Positions 3,199-23,196 of a stretch of DNA of 64,000 nt are shown here, piece by piece. Numbering within the stretch: position 1 is the stretch's first letter; each line of letters starts with the position of its first letter. Source of the stretch: an uncultured Methanosarcinaceae archaeon (GTDB taxonomy: Archaea > Halobacteriota > Methanosarcinia > Methanosarcinales > Methanosarcinaceae); contig CAVSHT010000004.1 of NCBI GenBank assembly GCA_963727895.1, forward strand, positions 160,001 through 224,000, read 5' to 3'. Below the pieces are notes generated by a model. It ran no database searches. It worked only from the letters and a program-made list of their open reading frames with translations, and was not told the DNA's origin. The position numbers were made by a program, and so were the translations under genes.

Positions 3199-3592
3199 TA
3201 TTCTTAATTCAACTGGCTTTAGAAAGCAGTGTTATTTGTACGTTGAGGAGATGATTTTGCCTTTCTGAATCAAGGACAAAACAGTTACTATTTAATTTTG
3301 ATTACTTTGCGCTGTTTCTCAAATTAATTTTTTATCATTACTCTTGATTTATTTTATAAAAAATATTCTGAAAATACCTCTGTTATACATAATAATAAAT
3401 ATGCAATTATCTAAATACTGTTATACAAAACTTTCAAATTAACTACATAAATTTATCTTACGTTTCATTCATTTAAAATTTTTAATGATATTAAAAATTT
3501 AGCTATTATTAAATATAACTGTCATAGAAAAAATTCAAATTATAAATTTAATTTTAAAGCGATTATGATATATATTCAAATATCATTGAATT

Positions 3593-3704
3593 ATGCAGAT
3601 TGAGAGTAGGGTTTCTTCTTAATCTTTGGGTTGGATCGCAGGTAGGAATCCTTGAATAGGGACTTGGAATTCCTACCATCAATCTCTATACTATACATTT
3701 TTTT
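3593..3704 (+). ncRNA. Candidate small RNA (copy A of a two-copy element)
   Basis: 40-nt identity with 12771-12810 (inverted); hairpin 3641-3677; upstream ATATATAT box; T7 tract at 3698-3704. Confidence 0.5.
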
Positions 3705-3957
3705 AAGTTATTACTTCATTTTGTTAGCATTTTTATAACCAACTTTTAAAAATATTTTTTTAGAATATATATTTTTCTTATAGTGTGCCCACGTTTAATA
3801 AAGCTTATGATTTGTCATAGATTCCTGCATATTCCCGATCATCGGGTTTTAGGGTCAACTATACTTCTTGATCAAATTTTTCAGAAAATTATTTTCTCCG
3901 GAGTAATTTTTTGATCGGGGTAACAAAAATTCTAGATAACAGTATGGAACAGAATTG

Positions 3958-4772
3958 GGTTCCGTTGCAAAAAATTTCAAAATAAGCATGTAAATCTATA
4001 GACAATGAACAGAAGTTAAAATATTCAAGAAGATGTATCAATATTATAGAACTATTCCAAATAATTGATTAATATATTTAGCTTCATTAAGACCAGAGTA
4101 ATTTAGATTCTTGACTTGTCCTTTTTTAATCATATTCATCGCTTCAATTCCTTTTAAAGTTTTATTAGCAGATCGAAAAGACTGAAATCCTAACATTGGA
4201 TTAACTATTCGTTTAATGGATCTATGATCCTGTTCTATAATGTTATTCAAATACTTGATTTGTCGAATGCCTACGTTTATAGGTAGTATTTTATCATTTT
4301 TCAGTTTATTTATAGCAGGTGGATAAGCTGGATTTTTGTCAACTGTGATTACTCTTGGAATTTGATTATGATTAGAATTCAAAGCTTTCTTAAAGAAACG
4401 TTTTGCTGCTTTTTGGTCTCGTTTTGCACTTAACATAAAATCAATTGTATCTCCATTTGAGTCAACTGCTCGGTAAAAATATTTCCATTTACCTTTAACT
4501 CTGATATAAGTTTCATCAACTCTCCAAGAGTCGTTTGTTGGTCTTAAATGCCTTCTGACCTTCTTTTCGATTTCAGGAGAGTATTGATGTACCCATCTCA
4601 TAATATGGTTGTATGGTTGACTATTACTCCCCTTTCTGCCATCATTTCCTTTAAATTTCGATAACTTAATGGATATTTTAAGTACCATCTAACATTCAAT
4701 AAAATAATTTCACCCACAAAATGCTTCCATTTAAGGGATTAGATAGCATGTCATTATCCTTTACTTCCCTTT
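3958..4772 (-). mobile_element. IS6-family element; frameshifted transposase, left end replaced by IS21
   Basis: IR GGTTCCGTTGCAAAAAA at 3958; DDE motifs WRVDETY, ITVDK, NNIIEQDHR; ATG at 4749; 2-nt insertion near 4603. Confidence 0.92.
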
Positions 4773-6221
4773 TGTCAATGCCGGTTTACTTTTCCCCATT
4801 TTGTCCTGATTAATTTTCCCCACCTTGTGATATAAAGTTTACTCAATTTTTCATGAACTTGTTAAAAATTACTGGTATAGATTTCCTGTTTTTATACCCT
4901 GTTTTTTCCTTTCTTTCAGCCTGTAACTTTCCCCTTTGATATTAATCGTCGTAGAATGATGGAGAAGCCTATCAAGCACAGGTTCCATACTGTTACAGCC
5001 GCTATTACATGGTCCTTGAATATCTCTCCCATTCTCCATACGACTTATTCGATGTTAAGATCATTGAATTCCTTTCATAACGTCTTGAGATTAGCTGAAA
5101 TAAACAGTGAGTTCCTTCTTCGTCAAATGGGAGATATCCTATTTCATCAATAATCAGCACTTTATACTTTATCAAGTCCCTGAGTTTCTTTTCAAGCATT
5201 CCTTCTTGATTTGCTGTTTTCAACCTTTCAATAAGGTTTCCTGTATTGGTAAAGTAAACCGAAATCCCCGACTTTACTGCTTCGATTCCAAGAGCAATTA
5301 CAAGGTGAGACTTGCCAACACCTGGTGGACCAAAGAAAACAACATTCTCTGAATTATGAACAAATCTCAAGGTTGCAAGGTCTTCGATTATCTTCTTATC
5401 AATGGATTTCTGAAAATCAAAATAGAATTCCTCAAGAGTCTTTTTAACAGGAAAAACTGCACTTTTCATCTTTCTCTCAATTGCAACAGCTTCTCTGTGT
5501 TTCTTTTCCTGTTCAAATAGATAATCAAGAACTTCCATTGTTGTCTTGTTGTCCCTTACAACAATTTCAAGAAAGTTGTCAAGGAGCTCTTCAACAGTAT
5601 TCAGTTTCAGGTATTGCAGATTGTTGTGAAGCCTCTCATAGGTGAAGTTGTTCATTCAAAACCTCCCTGGCTAAATATTTCATAGACATCAAGAGACCTT
5701 TTTTCAACTTCAGGACCTGAGGATTTCAACGGAATCTGTGAATTTTTCTTGCATTTTGAGTTCTCTTTAAGAATCTCACTCAGTAAACCCTGGAAATGTT
5801 CCTTTTTCCTTGAAACTCTGCAGTTACCTGGGAGAATTGCATGTTCACAGATCTTTTCATAATCAACATAGATCTCTAATTTTTCTTCAAAAATATGAAT
5901 CTCTGCAGTTCTTCCTGCATACCTGTAAGGAACAGAATACTTATTTCCAAGAAATGAAATATAACAGTCTCTGGAGACCTTTCTGGTCTCCTTCTTAACA
6001 ACTTTGTAAGGAGGAACCTGACCCAGAGGGTTCAGGTCCTCCTCCTTAAAGCATTCAAGAGGGATTTGATAGGTTGTTCCATGGACAGTTGAATTTACTC
6101 TTTCTAACCAACTGTTAACTTGGCCATTCAGTTCTTCAAGAGAGGTAAACCTTCTTCCAAGGAAGAAATCCCTTTTGACGTAACCTACCGTATTTTCAAT
6201 TTTACCTTTTGTTTGAGGCCT
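4773..6221 (-). mobile_element. IS21-family remnant (istA 3' part 5652-6221 plus frameshifted istB ~4870-5655)
   Basis: TGTCAA terminus with repeated TTTTCCCCA; IstA PQTKGKIEN; IstB Walker A GPPGVGKS, IIDEIGY, and LDRLLHH..KGESYR in a shifted frame. Confidence 0.9.
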
Positions 6222-10589: not shown

Positions 10590-11331
10590 GGTTTTGATAA
10601 TTAATTATAGTTATATACTATTAGAAAGTATATTTCTTCATGAACTGCCCCAGATGCAATAGTTCCAGTCACAAAAAGAACGGTATAGTTGGCGGGCGTC
10701 AACGGTACAAATGCCATGATTGTGGATATAACTATACAGTAGAGCTAAAATCAACTGCTTTTTCCGCCTCTGTCAAAAAACAGGCTTTACAACTTTACCT
10801 TGAAGGATTGGGCTTTCGTTCAATAGGAAGAGTTTTAGGGGTGAGTCATGTTTCTGTCCAAAGATGGATAAAGAAATTTGGTCAGGAGTTAGAGGCTCTA
10901 AAAAGCGAAAATGAGATATCTATTGTTGAACTGGATGAGATGCACACTTACATCGGTAACAAAAAAAATATTGCTGGATCTGGATTGCTGTTGATAGAGT
11001 TGGAAAAAAGTTCATCAACTGCTCTTTTGGCAGCAGAGGAACGGAAACTGGAAAACTACTCTGGGAAAAAGTGAAGAAAAAAGAGATTGGAGAAGTGATG
11101 ACAGATCACTGGAGAGCATATGCAGAGGTTCTTCCAGAAAAGAGTCATACTCAATCCAAAGCAGAAACGTATACTGTTGAAGGAGATATAACAGCATATT
11201 GAAGCATTTTCTAGCAAGATTGAGAAGAAAGACAAAGTGTTATACAAAAAGTCTTGAAATACTAAAGTACTCGGTTATTCTATTGATGAAATACAGAAAT
11301 AAAGAGTTAACTATGTTTAGTTAACAATGCC
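10590..11331 (+). mobile_element. IS1-family element (copy 2; insB frameshifted, variant left end)
   Basis: insA 10640-11074; A8 slippery site; 2-nt insertion near 11184; right end TAACAATGCC. Confidence 0.93.
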
Positions 11332-12324: not shown

Positions 12325-12449
12325 TAAGCCTTTGACTCAGGCGAAATAAGGAAGAATGGACACAACGTCTAAGAGGAAACTATAGTCACAAAAAGGTAGT
12401 GTATCAATTTTTCTGTAAATTTACCCTACGGTTTATGCATAGGTTTTGT

Positions 12450-12600
12450 GGTTCCATTGCAAAAAAAATAGTTCTGCAATTTGACACTATAATTTTCACC
12501 TTTTTCATATCAGTTTCTCCTGTATAAAAATGATTAACTTTCCGAATTGTGATGGTTTTTACTGATTTTGTGAATAAGCCATATTTTTTGCAACGGAACC
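12450..12600. mobile_element. 151-bp IS6-type MITE (second family)
   Basis: IRs GGTTCCATTGCAAAAAA / TTTTTTGCAACGGAACC; interior differs from the 7347 MITE. Confidence 0.8.
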
Positions 12601-12699
12601 CGGAGTTCAAAATAAGGTTCAGTATAAAGCATGGCTGACCTGGAAAAGGTTATAACATGCTTGTGCAACGAATTGATTGAACCTAAACAGGAGCAGAAG

Positions 12700-12829
12700 A
12701 AAAAAATTCAGAATTTCTGGAGATCAATTTAGAAGTAGATGGTAGAGTTTTGAGTCCCTATTCTCAAATCCCTACCTGCGATCCAACCCAAAGATTAAGA
12801 AGAAACCCTATTACTCTTAATCTATACAT
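12700..12829 (-). ncRNA. Candidate small RNA (copy B of the two-copy element)
   Basis: Inverted homologue of 3593-3704; hairpin 12741-12776; TATA-like box ~12845-12853; T7 tract on the minus strand at 12700-12706. Confidence 0.5.
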
Positions 12830-13014
12830 TTATAATAGCACGGTTATATATATCATCATTGATATCAAAAATTGTTTCTAATTTAAAATTGCAATATAAT
12901 TAAATAATTATATTACATAACATATTTTAATGGTGTAAAAATAAAATGCATTAAATTATATTTCGTTTAAAAACAATTTATTAGATAACTTATTTAATAT
13001 AATTTATAATATTG

Positions 13015-13185
13015 CTATGTGCTGGAGTTGGGAAATCGAGATGGGGTATCACCAAAGTAAAAGAATCTCCTTGAGGTTGCTGATCTTTCTTCGAACCTTT
13101 GCTTGGGGGAGCATAACTTCGGGAGACTGTATTGGGGGATACAGTAGCTACAGCACTTCTGGGCTTCTTCTTGCATTACATCTTT
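13015..13185 (+). ncRNA. Candidate multi-hairpin structured RNA with GGG(G)A loops
   Basis: GC-rich island in AT-rich DNA; closing stem GTGCTGGAG/CTACAGCAC; hairpins TGCTT-GGGG-GAGCA and ACTGTATT-GGGG-GATACAGT. Confidence 0.5.
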
Positions 13186-13609
13186 AATTTGACATAAGTT
13201 GTCAATTTATATAGTGATTCCTTACAAAAACACTTTCTGTCGGCATAGAATTTTTTGGAAAAATGAAACTATCAAAAATCAAAGAATGTAGTCTATAAAT
13301 TACAGTTGTAACAAAATATAACCATGTGGCTGATTTATTCATCATAATATTTATGTTTCTGTCAAATTAGGGTTTCATATTCAAGACTCTGTATCAAATT
13401 TAAAAATGAAAATTCAAGGATTTTATTCATGAAATATCTGAAAATATGTCCAAAATGAAATGCTAACCTGAAATTGCATTCAGATGGTGAGACTCAGTGT
13501 GATATTTGCAGTTACTGGACAAAAGTAGGTACAACAAAACTTGATCCAATTATTTTACGGATGAGGAGTTTGCATGAAGAATACCTAGATTTTTGATATC
13601 TTCTGGTCG

Positions 13610-13822
13610 TCATTGATTTTGTGAATGTTCACCACGGACTTTTTTTAACTGGTAAATACTGGATCTACTCAGCCCTGTCTTTTTTGTGATCTCAGTTTGT
13701 AGCATATCTCTATCAACATATAGCATGAAAAGTTTAAGTTTTTTAATAGATTTCAAATCCAATCCGGTTTCTTCAATCTTCGTACCGTTCAAAACCTCTC
13801 GATAAGCATCGGCTACGCTCAT
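13610..13822 (-). CDS. Small helix-turn-helix protein coupled to the recombinase gene
   Basis: QTEITKKTGLSRSSIYQL HTH; its ATG overlaps the recombinase stop (TGATG). Confidence 0.65.
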   Translation of the reverse strand: MSVADAYREVLNGTKIEETGLDLKSIKKLKLFMLYVDRDMLQTEITKKTGLSRSSIYQLKKVRGEHSQNQ

Positions 13823-14389
13823 CACCTTAAAATTCCCCACTCAGTAAGTCTCTTTTCAATATCTTTCATTTCATAATCTGTAAAACTTAAACTCTGATAG
13901 TGCCTTAATGACGTTACTGGGTCGTGTCCCTGTCTACTGTAAATCTCAATTTCCGGTATTCCAGCTTTAAGCATCCATGACTCTATTGTTTTCCTGGGAG
14001 TCTTCGGGCCGACTTTCGGGCTTATATCTGCTTTCTCAGACCACCTGCTAAGGTTATCCCACCAACTTGTACGATCTGGAGGTCTTCTACCTTCCTGAAA
14101 TGCCTTAATTAGATATGGAAAAGTAGTGGGAAGTTTGTCAATAGTGCGCTTTGGTGCTTTCTGTTTAACCTTCTTCTGAGCTTCCTTTGGGAGTATAATT
14201 TGATTCCTGCTCTCAATGTACCATGATGGATTATAATATAATCTTTGTAATTCGACATAGCGAAGTCCCGTAATTGTGTTAAGTTCAAAAATAAGCTTAA
14301 ACTTTGCAGGTATCGCCTTAACAAATCGATCATACTCTTCGACAGTTAACACTTTTAGTGCCGTCTGCTGTTATTAATCCATTTTCTAT
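13822..14389 (-). CDS. Minimal tyrosine recombinase/integrase (5' end apparently damaged)
   Basis: TGLRYVEL, KTPRKT, GHD...SLRHY catalytic motifs; the upstream frame ATA-ENGLITADGTK joins after a one-base shift near 14353. Confidence 0.8.
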
Positions 14390-15122: not shown

Positions 15123-15981
15123 GGTTCCGTTGCAAAAAATCTCAGAATAAGCATGTAAATCCATAATCAATAACCAAAAGTACAAATATTCAAAAAGATG
15201 TGTCAATATTATAGAACTATTCCAAATAATTGATTAATATATTTAGCTTCATTAAAGCCAGAGTAATTTAGGTTTTTGATTTGTCCTTTTTTAATCATAT
15301 TCATAGCTTCAATTCCTTTTAAAGTCTTAATAGCTGTGTTAAAAGACTGAAATCCTAACATTGGATTAACTATTCGTTTAATGGATCTATGATCTTGTTC
15401 TATAATGTTATTCAAATACTTGATTTGTCGAATGCCTACGTTTATAGGTAGTATTTTATCATTTTTCAGTTTATCTATAGCAGGTGGATAAGCTGGATTT
15501 TTATCAACTGTGATTACTCTTGGAATTTGATTATGATTAGAATTCAAAGCTTTCTTAAAGAAACGTTTTGCTGCTTTTTGATCTCGTTTTGCACTTAACA
15601 TGAAATCAATTGTATCTCCATTTGAGTCAACTGCTCGGTAAAAATATTTCCATTTACCTTTAACTCTGATGTAAGTTTCATCAACTCTCCAAGAGTCGTT
15701 TGTTGGTCTTAAATGCCTTCTTACCTTCTTTTCGATTTCAGGAGAGTATTGATGTACCCATCTCATAATATGGTTGTATGGTTGACTATTACTCCCCTTT
15801 CTGCCATCATTTCCTCTAAATTTCTATAACTTACTGGATATTTTAGGTACCATCTGACGTTTAATAAAATGATTTCTCCTTCGTAATGTTTCCACTTAAA
15901 GGAATTAGATAGCATATTATCGTTCTATTGATTTTCTCCTTATTCAATTGAATCCTTATTATGATTTTTTGCAACAGAACC
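15123..15981 (-). mobile_element. IS6-family element, full length, frameshifted transposase
   Basis: IRs GGTTCCGTTGCAAAAAA / TTTTTTGCAACAGAACC; same 2-nt insertion as the 3958 copy. Confidence 0.95.
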
Positions 15982-18391: not shown

Positions 18392-19131
18392 GGCATTGAT
18401 ACTTAAACATAGTTATATACTATTAGAAAGTATATTTCTTCATGAACTGCCCCAGATGCAATAGTTCCAGTCACAAAAAGAACGGTATAGTTGGTGGTCG
18501 TCAACGCCACAAATGCCATAATTGTGGATATAACTATACAGTAGAGCTAAAATCAACTGCTTTTTCCGCCTCTGTTAAAAGACAGGCTTTACAACTTTAC
18601 CTTGAAGGATTAGGCTTTCGTTCAATAGGAAGAGTTTTAGGGGTGAGTCATGTTTCTGTCCAAAGATGGATCAAGAAATTTGGTCAGGAGTTAGAGGACC
18701 TAAAAAGTGAAAATGAGATATCTATTGTTGAAATGGATGAGATGCACACTTACATCGGTAACAAAAAAAATATTGCTGGATCTGGATTGCTGTTGATAGA
18801 GATGGGAAAAAGTTCATCAACTGCTCTTTTGGTAGCAGAGGAACGGAAACTGGAAAACTACTCAGGGAAAAAGTGAAGAAAAAAGAGATTGGAGAAGTGA
18901 TGACCGATCACTGGAGAGCATATGCAGAGTTTATTCCAGAAAAGATCCATACTCAATCCAAAGCAGAAACGTATACTGTTGAAGGATATAACAGCATATT
19001 GAGGCACTTTTTGGCAAGGTTGAGAAGAAAGACAAAGTGTTATACGAAGAGTCTTGAAATGCTAAAGTACTCGGTAATTCCATTGATGAAATAAAGAAAT
19101 AAAGAACTAGATATAGTTAAGTAACAATACC
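18392..19131 (+). mobile_element. IS1-family element (copy 3)
   Basis: Both IRs; insA 18442-18876; A8 slippery site; insB with premature TAA at 19092-19094. Confidence 0.95.
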
Positions 19132-22375: not shown

Positions 22376-23196
22376 AAAAATATTAAAGTTATTGTATATT
22401 TAAAAAACTACTGATATTTATTAGAAGACAAGTTAAAGAGAATAACAACAACATTTAAGTAAAGATATTATAAACAGATCTTTTGGAGATCTAAACGTTT
22501 CATGGTAAGAATAACGCAATAACGCCCAAATGGTGAACAACATCAAGACCAAATAAGCAACTAAAGATTAGAGTACTTATTGAGCTTATTACGAATGTAT
22601 TGTAATTAGCTACAAAAAGTGCAACAAAAAAGCCTATGATTTAAATTATTCTAATATCTCCATTCTTTTTTACAAACAATTTAAACTCATCCGCAATAGG
22701 AACTGGATCTATTTTTTTAGTATTGATGTTGGGATATAAAACTCTAACTTTCTCAACGAGCCACCGAAAATACACAATGTTTTGAGATATATTTAAAACC
22801 CCGACAACTACACAATACCCCCAGGATAATTTTTATATAATAGTAATGGGTAATAAGAATCCGGTTGCTTATGAGAAAATACTAAAAGCCTCATTTCACA
22901 CACCAGATTCAAAAGGATTATTATGAAGGATAAGTTTCATCCCCTTCTTCTTGTCCGTTTATAATCGTTTTCTCGTAAGCAACTATCCTTTCCATATTTT
23001 TATAAATCTAAAATTCAGGTATTCCTTATTATAGTCCTGATTGTAAGAAATTCACTTAAATCTCTTAACTGCCCTGTTCTCTCATATATCTGTGTAAATT
23101 TTCCATATAATCTGCTTTTTTTTCAACTTGAATTCAATATAAGACCGAAGAATAAGACCTATTATTTAAATATCGACAGCTCTATTTAGTATCAAG

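Follow-up and report, generated by a model that had tools for sequence, protein, structure and literature searches.

Very few archaeal small RNAs (sRNAs) have a known mode of action, and to our knowledge none has been reported that presents many copies of a protein-binding or ribosome-binding motif; our literature searches found none either. In bacteria, where the CsrB, RsmY and RsmZ RNAs titrate a protein, the LhrC sRNAs reportedly carry redundant C-rich UCCC sites that pair with Shine-Dalgarno (SD) regions, and RosA is said to be G-rich. Passages of PMC4132741 describe LhrC of Listeria as a multi-copy sRNA family, and passages of PMC8216469 present the Bacillus subtilis RNA RosA as a sponge of RoxS, a C-rich sRNA. 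Here we describe the G-loop RNA, an element found in a stretch of 64,000 nucleotides (nt) from an uncultured Methanosarcinaceae archaeon (assembly GCA_963727895.1, contig CAVSHT010000004.1, positions 160,001 to 224,000). This whole stretch is called the window, its positions are used throughout, and the assembly is referred to as the source genome. Our analysis shows that a multi-copy family of non-coding sRNA genes, confined to Methanosarcina and one sister genus, is represented here by a transcribed member on the plus strand, from 13019 to about 13260. The repeated G-runs of this RNA suggest that it may act as a decoy, a reading that we weigh below against its alternatives.

A multi-copy family of non-coding RNAs

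A preliminary description, made from the sequence alone, had singled out a GC-rich non-coding island at 13015-13185 and suggested an archaeal decoy RNA for an SD-like or GGG-binding protein. The island is borne out by its GC content of 0.38-0.46 between AT-rich flanks of 0.12-0.23, and all the strings quoted in that description are found where it placed them. Besides the window copy, the source genome contains four more copies of the region 12953-13185, at 68-76% identity, and at least one copy (E ≤ 1e-10) occurs in 52 of 59 Methanosarcina genomes, with up to 12 matches each. A covariance-model search gave seven matches in the source genome, four of them strong copies. Across 151 genomes of the order, the model matched 16, with 11 of 12 for Methanosarcina (g1) and four of four for the sister genus (g17), and it found no match in the other 21 genera. 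Among named genomes, an exact-pattern scan returned 32 loci titled Methanosarcina, Methanosarcinaceae, Methanosarcinales or Methanobacteriota (unclassified archaeal metagenome-assembled genomes), bar two from one record titled only "metagenome."

Analysis of 44 copies with RNAalifold yields a three-way junction for the 117-nt core at 13056-13172 (+), and the minimum free energy (MFE) fold of the core is the same junction. Helix P1 pairs 13061-13082 with 13151-13169. Helix P2 pairs 13088-13094 with 13118-13124 and continues into a hairpin (13100-13104 with 13109-13113) whose loop is GGGG at 13105-13108, while P3 pairs 13126-13133 with 13138-13145 around a second GGGG loop at 13134-13137; the tips of both arms are identical, each a U-UGGGGG-A hexaloop. 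The core covariance model, R1, gave 115 matches in the collected loci, 89 of them distinct, and scores the window copy at 119.5 bits. When the 89 distinct sequences are aligned to the model, 94.6% of the cells are paired, compared with 40-62% when the pairing is slid, and 28 of the 36 pairs carry double changes; sliding leaves 7-18 such pairs, and the shuffles average 15.1 ± 2.1, none of the 500 reaching the observed number. Because this alignment was fitted to the covariance model, the count was repeated on a plain MAFFT alignment not fitted to it, in which 97.4% is paired against 45-61% when slid. These findings indicate that a consensus structure is preserved by compensatory changes across homologues, as in other structured RNA families. 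The evidence is comparative and not thermodynamic, because 13015-13185, folded as a single sequence, has no advantage in stability over shuffles (z = -0.37 on the plus strand and -0.97 on the minus strand; -1.30 for the core), and thermodynamic stability was accordingly set aside as uninformative.

This junction replaces part of the fold first proposed, of whose five helices two hold and three are wrong. The hairpins TGCTT-GGGG-GAGCA (13100-13113) and ACTGTATT-GGGG-GATACAGT (13126-13145) are near-universal among the copies and show compensatory changes. The proposed closing stem (13019-13027 with 13148-13156) and the two small hairpins GAT-GGGGT-ATC and AATCTC-CTT-GAGGTT are jointly 71.1% paired in the MAFFT alignment A1, against 70.1 for shuffles (15 of 500 as high), and this arrangement was rejected. 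The strand AATCTC..GAGG pairs instead with the 3' strand CAGC..CCUCUGGG..UUCUU and thereby closes the three-way junction measured in the plain alignment above. A CTTCGG motif is indeed present where it had been described, but it is no separate element and belongs to helix P2.

What stays constant in the arms is the G-run. GGGG occupies the P2 loop in 70 and the P3 loop in 80 of the 89 distinct copies while the stems covary, so the predicted conservation of the loop G-runs stands; divergent copies have other stem sequences (GUGCU...AGCAC, CUGCAG...CUGCAG) around a GGG(G) core that persists. Further G-runs lie in the single-stranded 5' tail, which in the window spans 13019-13055 (+) and contains the motifs UUGGGAAAU (13028-13036) and AUGGGGUAU (13041-13049). 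Of 85 copies, 63 have at least two GGG runs within the 45 nt 5' of the core, and the tail tracts number from 0 to 4. A copy has 1.87 GGG runs there on average, whereas DNA 76-120 nt upstream has 0.16 and downstream DNA 0.09. Tail runs mostly stand in the contexts UU-GGG(G)-AA and YU-GGGG-UA, and the repeated motif of the family can be written YU-GGG(G)-RA. Since there are usually two runs in the tail besides the two loops, four to five G-runs are exposed per molecule. The island of the window holds six GGG+ runs (13030-13032, 13043-13046, 13105-13109, 13121-13123, 13134-13138 and 13161-13163), one more than had been counted before. Genome-wide counts of loop 8-mers were also tried as a route to targets and gave no lead, despite 86 occurrences of TTGGGGGA against 48 expected.

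The RNA has a promoter of its own at 12968-13016 (+). Its upstream motif reads TAAAAACAATTTATTAGAT in the window and GAAAACAATTTTTGATAT in the family consensus, and its TATA box, TTTAATATAA (12993-13002), lies 17-25 nt ahead of the first transcribed bases and is followed by CTATGTGCTGGAG. The DNA preceding the island is among the best-conserved parts of 42 distinct aligned copies, and the TATA-like box proposed earlier, TTATTTAA at 12990-12997, falls inside the conserved block ATTTATTTAATATAA. Conservation after the promoter extends to ...CCTCTGGGCTTCTTCTT (13172) and ends there. Contigs from RNA libraries of two studies span the RNA, one covering 13019-13259 (244 nt, 10 differences) and the other 13027-13264 (238 nt, 11 differences). 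Their starts match the promoter prediction and their ends lie just past a T6 tract at 13251-13256, so that the transcript extends 3' of the core through 13173-13264 (+). These contigs have a depth of 2.3-4.2, give neither strand nor abundance, and come from libraries that could hold DNA; the matching ends are a weak hint. This cover is still consistent with one discrete RNA about 240 nt long. Within the inspected interval 12500-13700, no RNA contig covers 12828-12991 or 13279-13360, which is not evidence of silence.

Two open reading frames (ORFs) cross the island, one of 56 amino acids (aa) at 13017-13187 (+) and one of 53 aa at 13015-13176 (-). An ATG-initiated ORF of at least 40 aa is kept in only 9 of 44 copies on the plus strand and 6 of 44 on the minus strand. 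The ATG of the window is present in 26 of the 44 copies and is ATA in 14, and the minus-strand ATG is immediately followed by TAA in many copies. The distance between the loops, taken modulo 3, splits 20/13/9, which reveals indels that are not multiples of three, and the tail varies in length through indels of the same kind. Coding on either strand was therefore rejected: because neither the ORFs nor the start codon are conserved and the loop spacing falls in all three residues modulo 3, the element is a non-coding RNA gene on the plus strand. Together with the promoter conserved in 42 copies and the oligo-T found after most stand-alone copies (see below), the lack of a conserved ORF describes an independent archaeal sRNA gene.

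Rfam holds no match to the island. A search of the whole window at the gathering score gave none there, and one restricted to 12400-13500 at E ≤ 10 gave only three chance-level matches to unrelated families. Passages of the review PMC3432209 and of the sRNA162 paper PMC3510493 make no mention of such a family, and the loop sequences were not found in the paper texts searched. No link to a named Methanosarcina mazei sRNA emerged through Rfam models (E ≤ 10) or the searched texts. The family is new in the sense that Rfam 15 does not list it and that it did not turn up in those texts; the word is limited to these sources because members may already be numbered in the 2009 M. mazei sRNA catalogue, which lies outside the comparison. 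A preprint considered as a parallel (10.1101/2025.10.28.685009) was discarded, as its "sponge" refers to lipid droplets.

Stand-alone copies, leaders and the zinc-ribbon gene Z

Copies of the G-loop RNA occur in two settings, which were told apart for 85 distinct copies, all with 300 nt or more of DNA downstream, by looking within 450 nt for a 46-aa zinc-ribbon ORF, here named Z (MKHLKICPKC...). In 15 of them, the leader copies, an intact Z begins 52-102 nt past the core, and in 13 of these 15 no T5 intervenes. The other 70 are stand-alone copies that lack Z within this distance; in 52 of the 70, a run of at least five T lies within 60 nt, mostly within 20 nt. A cis-regulatory leader or riboswitch always lies directly upstream of the gene it regulates, on one transcript with it, and the G-loop RNA precedes Z in only 15 of 85 cases. 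The concern attached to the decoy proposal, that homologues might be nothing but 5' leaders, is answered by the same sorting, even though the window copy is itself a former leader.

The history of the window copy can be read from its downstream DNA. A Z pseudogene at 13429-13557 (+), with the ribosome-binding site (RBS) CAAGGAUUUUAUUC, was recognized by the genome search at 70% identity and has an in-frame TGA (13456-13458) in place of the second Cys of CPxC. Between the RNA and this pseudogene lies a 185-bp insert at 13185-13369, without assigned strand, which resembles a MITE (miniature inverted-repeat transposable element). Its 13-nt terminal inverted repeats, TAATTTGACATAA (13185-13197) and TTCTGTCAAATTA (13357-13369), are 92% complementary, and it has 10 copies in the source genome. 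The insert is missing from the copy of the closest relative and from a paralogue, and it contains the T6 tract where the RNA contigs end. Once a Z leader, the window copy was cut off from a working gene by a nonsense mutation and by the MITE-like insertion, from which its T6 stop now comes.

Z itself is far older and more widespread than the G-loop RNA. The family (CPxC...CxxC, YWTK.GTARLDSI) is present in 75 of the 151 genomes of the order, compared with 16 for the RNA. Among them are all 48 searched genomes of one taxonomic family and 26 of 27 from a second family of the order, and it occurs in all searched genomes of both Methanosarcina (12/12) and the sister genus (4/4). It is often found in 2-7 copies per genome and in tandem (loci L131-L150), behind leaders rich in G-runs. 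A comparison of Z with solved structures gave no match below E = 0.4, and its N-terminus was not found in the searched part of the supplements of PMC11456600.

The sister genus and one Methanosarcina genome contain tandem arrays of four to six full units, each with promoter, RNA and T6 tracts, and, in the sister genus, with no Z between them; the arrays have a period of 450-600 nt, as in loci L123 (at 3400-6200; G157:C1), L124 and L125. The genes flanking the copies are ordinary and heterogeneous, encoding polyprenyl synthase, LysE, DUF711, CNNM and TPR proteins and PAS/HisKA_2 kinases, along with three transposase-like proteins. This survey covers 81 of 157 candidate ORFs, from which shorter ORFs and those in short loci were dropped. 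Some copies that adjoin polyprenyl synthase are syntenic across species. PAS/HisKA_2 sensor kinases stand beside six copies (6 of the 81 ORFs; loci L012, L014, L018, L023, L040 and L105), a count that may not be independent because these loci may be orthologous.

The divergent partner RNA and the role of the G-runs

A second RNA is encoded on the opposite strand at 12726-12823 (-), with its own TATA box, GATATATATAAC. This partner RNA, which the preliminary description called copy B and credited with a G loop of its own, does form two hairpins with the loops AAUAGGGU and AAUAGGGA, and its MFE fold has a z of -3.38. Alignment of 34 copies shows that its promoter and its body of about 98 nt are highly conserved, and it lies about 190 nt upstream, in divergent orientation, at all four strong G-loop RNA copies of the source genome. 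It is a second uncatalogued RNA family. Six copies are present in the source genome, one of them at 3597-3688 of the window (RNA on the plus strand), and many in the genus; the loops read AAUAGGG, and the copies sometimes form tandem arrays without the G-loop RNA; locus L127, for instance, has five matches. Immediately upstream of the TATA boxes, both divergent promoters contain one common motif, GAAACAATnTTTnnTAT / GAAACAATnTTT (12968-12986 and about 12860-12880 on the minus strand), which may be the site of a shared regulator.

We propose that the G-runs would be the working parts of the G-loop RNA, resembling the RBS of Z genes in other Methanosarcinales, and that the RNA would work in trans, offering a multivalent decoy or platform to whatever factor recognizes the G-run motif. 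This factor would probably be a protein, for which Z is one candidate, or alternatively the 30S subunit, and its binding would keep it, by titration, from mRNAs such as the Z leaders, much as CsrB and RsmZ do but with unrelated parts. Taken as a whole, from the RNA gene family to its action in trans, this reading is quite possible, and we advance it tentatively. It is favoured because only the short GGG core is fixed while flanks and stems vary, because the motif is redundant both within the molecule (four to five per RNA) and among the many genes per genome, because a second, unrelated neighbouring RNA displays the same kind of loop, and because the motif coincides with the ribosome-binding region of a conserved zinc-ribbon gene.

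The last point comes from Z leaders outside the reach of the RNA. A pattern search over 20 loci, 18 from other genera and two from Methanosarcina for comparison, gave 14 other-genus Z ORFs, and a G-run stands at -11 to -14 from the AUG in 13 of them (for example AGUAGGGGUAUUCAA-AUG, UUAGGGGAAAACGUAAA-AUG and GGUGGGGGUAUAUA-AUG), these 14 leaders from six genera being partly orthologous and therefore not independent. By comparison, GGGG at -18 to -5 is found in only 5.3% of 1015 long ORFs of the source genome, a background drawn from one genome, of a different genus from the Z loci, with crude start calls. The RBS of Z in other Methanosarcinales reads UAGGGGAA, AUGGGGAG or GUGGGGGUAU, 7-10 nt before the AUG, and the source-genome Z leaders that do not stand behind the G-loop RNA carry UAAGGGAAUCAAUUAGGGAAUCAA. 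Two to four more G-runs lie within 150 nt of the AUG in these 13 ORFs, such as GUUUGGGGAGUGGGAAAC, reminiscent of the RNA tail GGAGUUGGGGAAUAG. Given the 13 of 14 against the 5.3% background, the repeated motif of the RNA marks the translation start region of Z across the order. The suggestion that the bound sequence is SD-like gains support in this way, and the decoy role itself stays a matter of interpretation.

Beyond the limits already given for the model-fitted alignment, the RNA contigs and the leader comparison, several points weigh against our proposal. The Methanosarcina Z genes behind the RNA have a canonical AAGGAG 55-100 nt after the core, and therefore it is not obvious that binding at the G-runs of the RNA would block this site. 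In the window copy, which may be decaying, P1 contains a U-U mismatch (13072/13160). A six-frame search of the 84%-complete source genome did not find CsrA (PF02599), with the control positive in Escherichia coli, Bacillus subtilis and Thermotoga maritima. The predicted decoy is plausible by analogy, and its binding partner is likewise a prediction. The protein-sponge claim of the preliminary description thus survives the leader, transcript and loop checks as a plausible role inferred by analogy. A search with PF03861, prompted by an ANTAR-type reading of the two hexaloops, gave no match, and neither did its control.

The sequences that support a decoy could also serve base-pairing, with the RNA as a regulator or sponge whose G-rich sites pair with C/U-rich strands, such as the CCUCCU-type seeds of sRNA41-like sRNAs or the anti-SD of 16S rRNA. 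A multi-copy family repeating one short motif in loops and single strands would suit this purpose. The source genome has three copies of sRNA41 (RF02905), each with a single-stranded CCUCCUAAAU, with which UUGGGGG can form, as read from the sequence, 7 bp including two G-U pairs; its 16S rRNA ends in GGAUCACCUCCUAA, a possible anti-SD partner, and GGGGG can in principle pair with CCUCC through one G-U pair. However, for the 5' regions of the three sRNA41 copies, 118, 236 and 287 of 300 dinucleotide shuffles gave duplexes with the G-loop RNA that were as good in energy, and sRNA41 was rejected as a partner. The invariant part, GGG(G) with varying flanks, is short for a seed; the loops are only 4-6 nt and closed by stable stems; and GGAGG, the better anti-SD partner, is nearly never in the loops. 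We regard base-pairing as somewhat unlikely. Slightly less probable still, and unlikely in our view, is that the RNA acts only in cis as a leader of Z, riboswitch-like or as a ribosome standby site of SD-like G-runs, with the stand-alone copies as decaying, functionless remnants. The leader copies described above, most of them without a T5 before Z, speak for it, as do the window copy, which is such a unit with a dead gene, and the G-run-rich Z leaders of other genera. It has to account for the 70 copies without Z, 52 of them followed by oligo-T, and for the promoter, pairing and loops that stand-alone copies retain, including those in tandem arrays; covariation across stand-alone copies argues for selection on the RNA itself, and Z far predates the RNA.

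Copy number could also have arisen by spread alone, if the element were a selfish dispersed repeat or a promoter-bearing mobile cassette whose structure serves propagation. The neighbourhood in the source genome is a mosaic of modules A, C and U, present in 6, 10 and 24 copies, and the window copy lies amid a split integrase, an IS240 transposase and the MITE-like insert. No match to the RNA was found in phage records, plasmid records or IMG/VR contigs, and a virus or plasmid origin was rejected on these grounds; this absence, the mostly ordinary chromosomal flanks (3 of 81 scanned ORFs transposase-like) and the synteny beside polyprenyl synthase make this explanation improbable. A role of the G-runs in the tertiary fold of the RNA, through a G-quadruplex or docking of the tail on the loops, would explain why at least four tracts of at least three G are preserved in most copies; long helical inserts part these tracts, two of them sit in hairpin loops of 4-6 nt, and the tail tracts vary in number from 0 to 4, so that we consider it very improbable. 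For a small-protein gene there is the existence of both ORFs in the window, and in view of their poor conservation, the ATA starts, the frame-breaking indels between the loops and the TAA after the minus-strand ATG, it is barely credible.

The trans-acting decoy or platform that we favour can be extended to a more specific scheme, which is doubtful as a whole. Z would bind G-runs both at its own RBS and in its leader and so regulate itself; in Methanosarcina, the leader would have become the Y-shaped RNA and multiplied to 5-14 stand-alone decoys per genome; and the partner RNA would be a second decoy under the shared promoter motif. Such a system would be the first archaeal titration circuit of the Csr/Rsm type, built from unrelated parts. 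The family illustrates how a 5' leader can turn into a set of free-standing RNA genes. It is a delimited object of study, with a covariation-backed fold, two identical mutable hexaloops, a series from leader to stand-alone copies, a candidate partner gene and genetically tractable methanogens as hosts.

Surroundings of the locus and relation to known systems

Remnants of mobile elements surround the locus. A tyrosine-integrase fragment and the separate AlpA-like helix-turn-helix (HTH) ORF that precedes it represent a split gene; the others are an IS240-type DDE transposase and a pair of paralogous HTH_23 proteins of 144 aa. They lie at 13610-14352 (-), 15209-15766 (-), 10640-11074 (+) and 18442-18876 (+). 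A dispersed repeat of about 70-100 bp at 12520-12620 has 24 copies in the source genome, and one RNA-library contig carrying this repeat has a depth of 145. The only Rfam gene in the whole window is sRNA154 (RF02906) at 22862-22995 (+), full-length and scoring 94.8 bits against a gathering score of 88, about 10 kb from the G-loop RNA; its presence assigns the source genome to Methanosarcina. The results reported here enrich the annotation of Methanosarcina genomes by one MITE and no fewer than two RNA families that had not been annotated.

Within the genus, the M. mazei sRNAs sRNA154 and sRNA41 are the nearest points of reference, as they are likewise intergenic, have their own promoters and measure 100-250 nt. 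Neither model matches the G-loop region at E ≤ 10, and the G-loop family differs in having more copies, some of which double as a 5' leader; the G-loop RNA is none of the M. mazei sRNAs in Rfam. The comparison with RosA rests on the idea that the G-loop RNA could neutralize a C-rich regulator; unlike RosA, it has no supported C-rich partner, given the sRNA41 duplexes described above. LhrC offers a closer formal parallel, with several near-identical genes per genome, some in tandem, and one short motif repeated in loops and single strands. The polarity is reversed, however, since the sites of the G-loop RNA are G-rich and SD-like and those of LhrC are C-rich.

The CsrB, RsmY and RsmZ RNAs share with the G-loop RNA the repeated display, in hairpin loops and single strands, of one short G-containing motif that resembles an RBS, and they too occur as paralogous copies. 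The motif itself differs, being GGG(G) or YU-GGG(G)-RA instead of A(N)GGA, so that the GGA signature of that group is lacking. The architecture differs as well, with four to five sites on a three-way junction and its tail in place of a string of many hairpins. The G-loop RNA also has no Rfam similarity to these RNAs and belongs to an archaeal host in whose genome CsrA was not found, and protein titration is in its case a prediction by analogy. If it works in this way at all, the G-loop RNA would work like CsrB or RsmZ, and yet it is not a member of their family.

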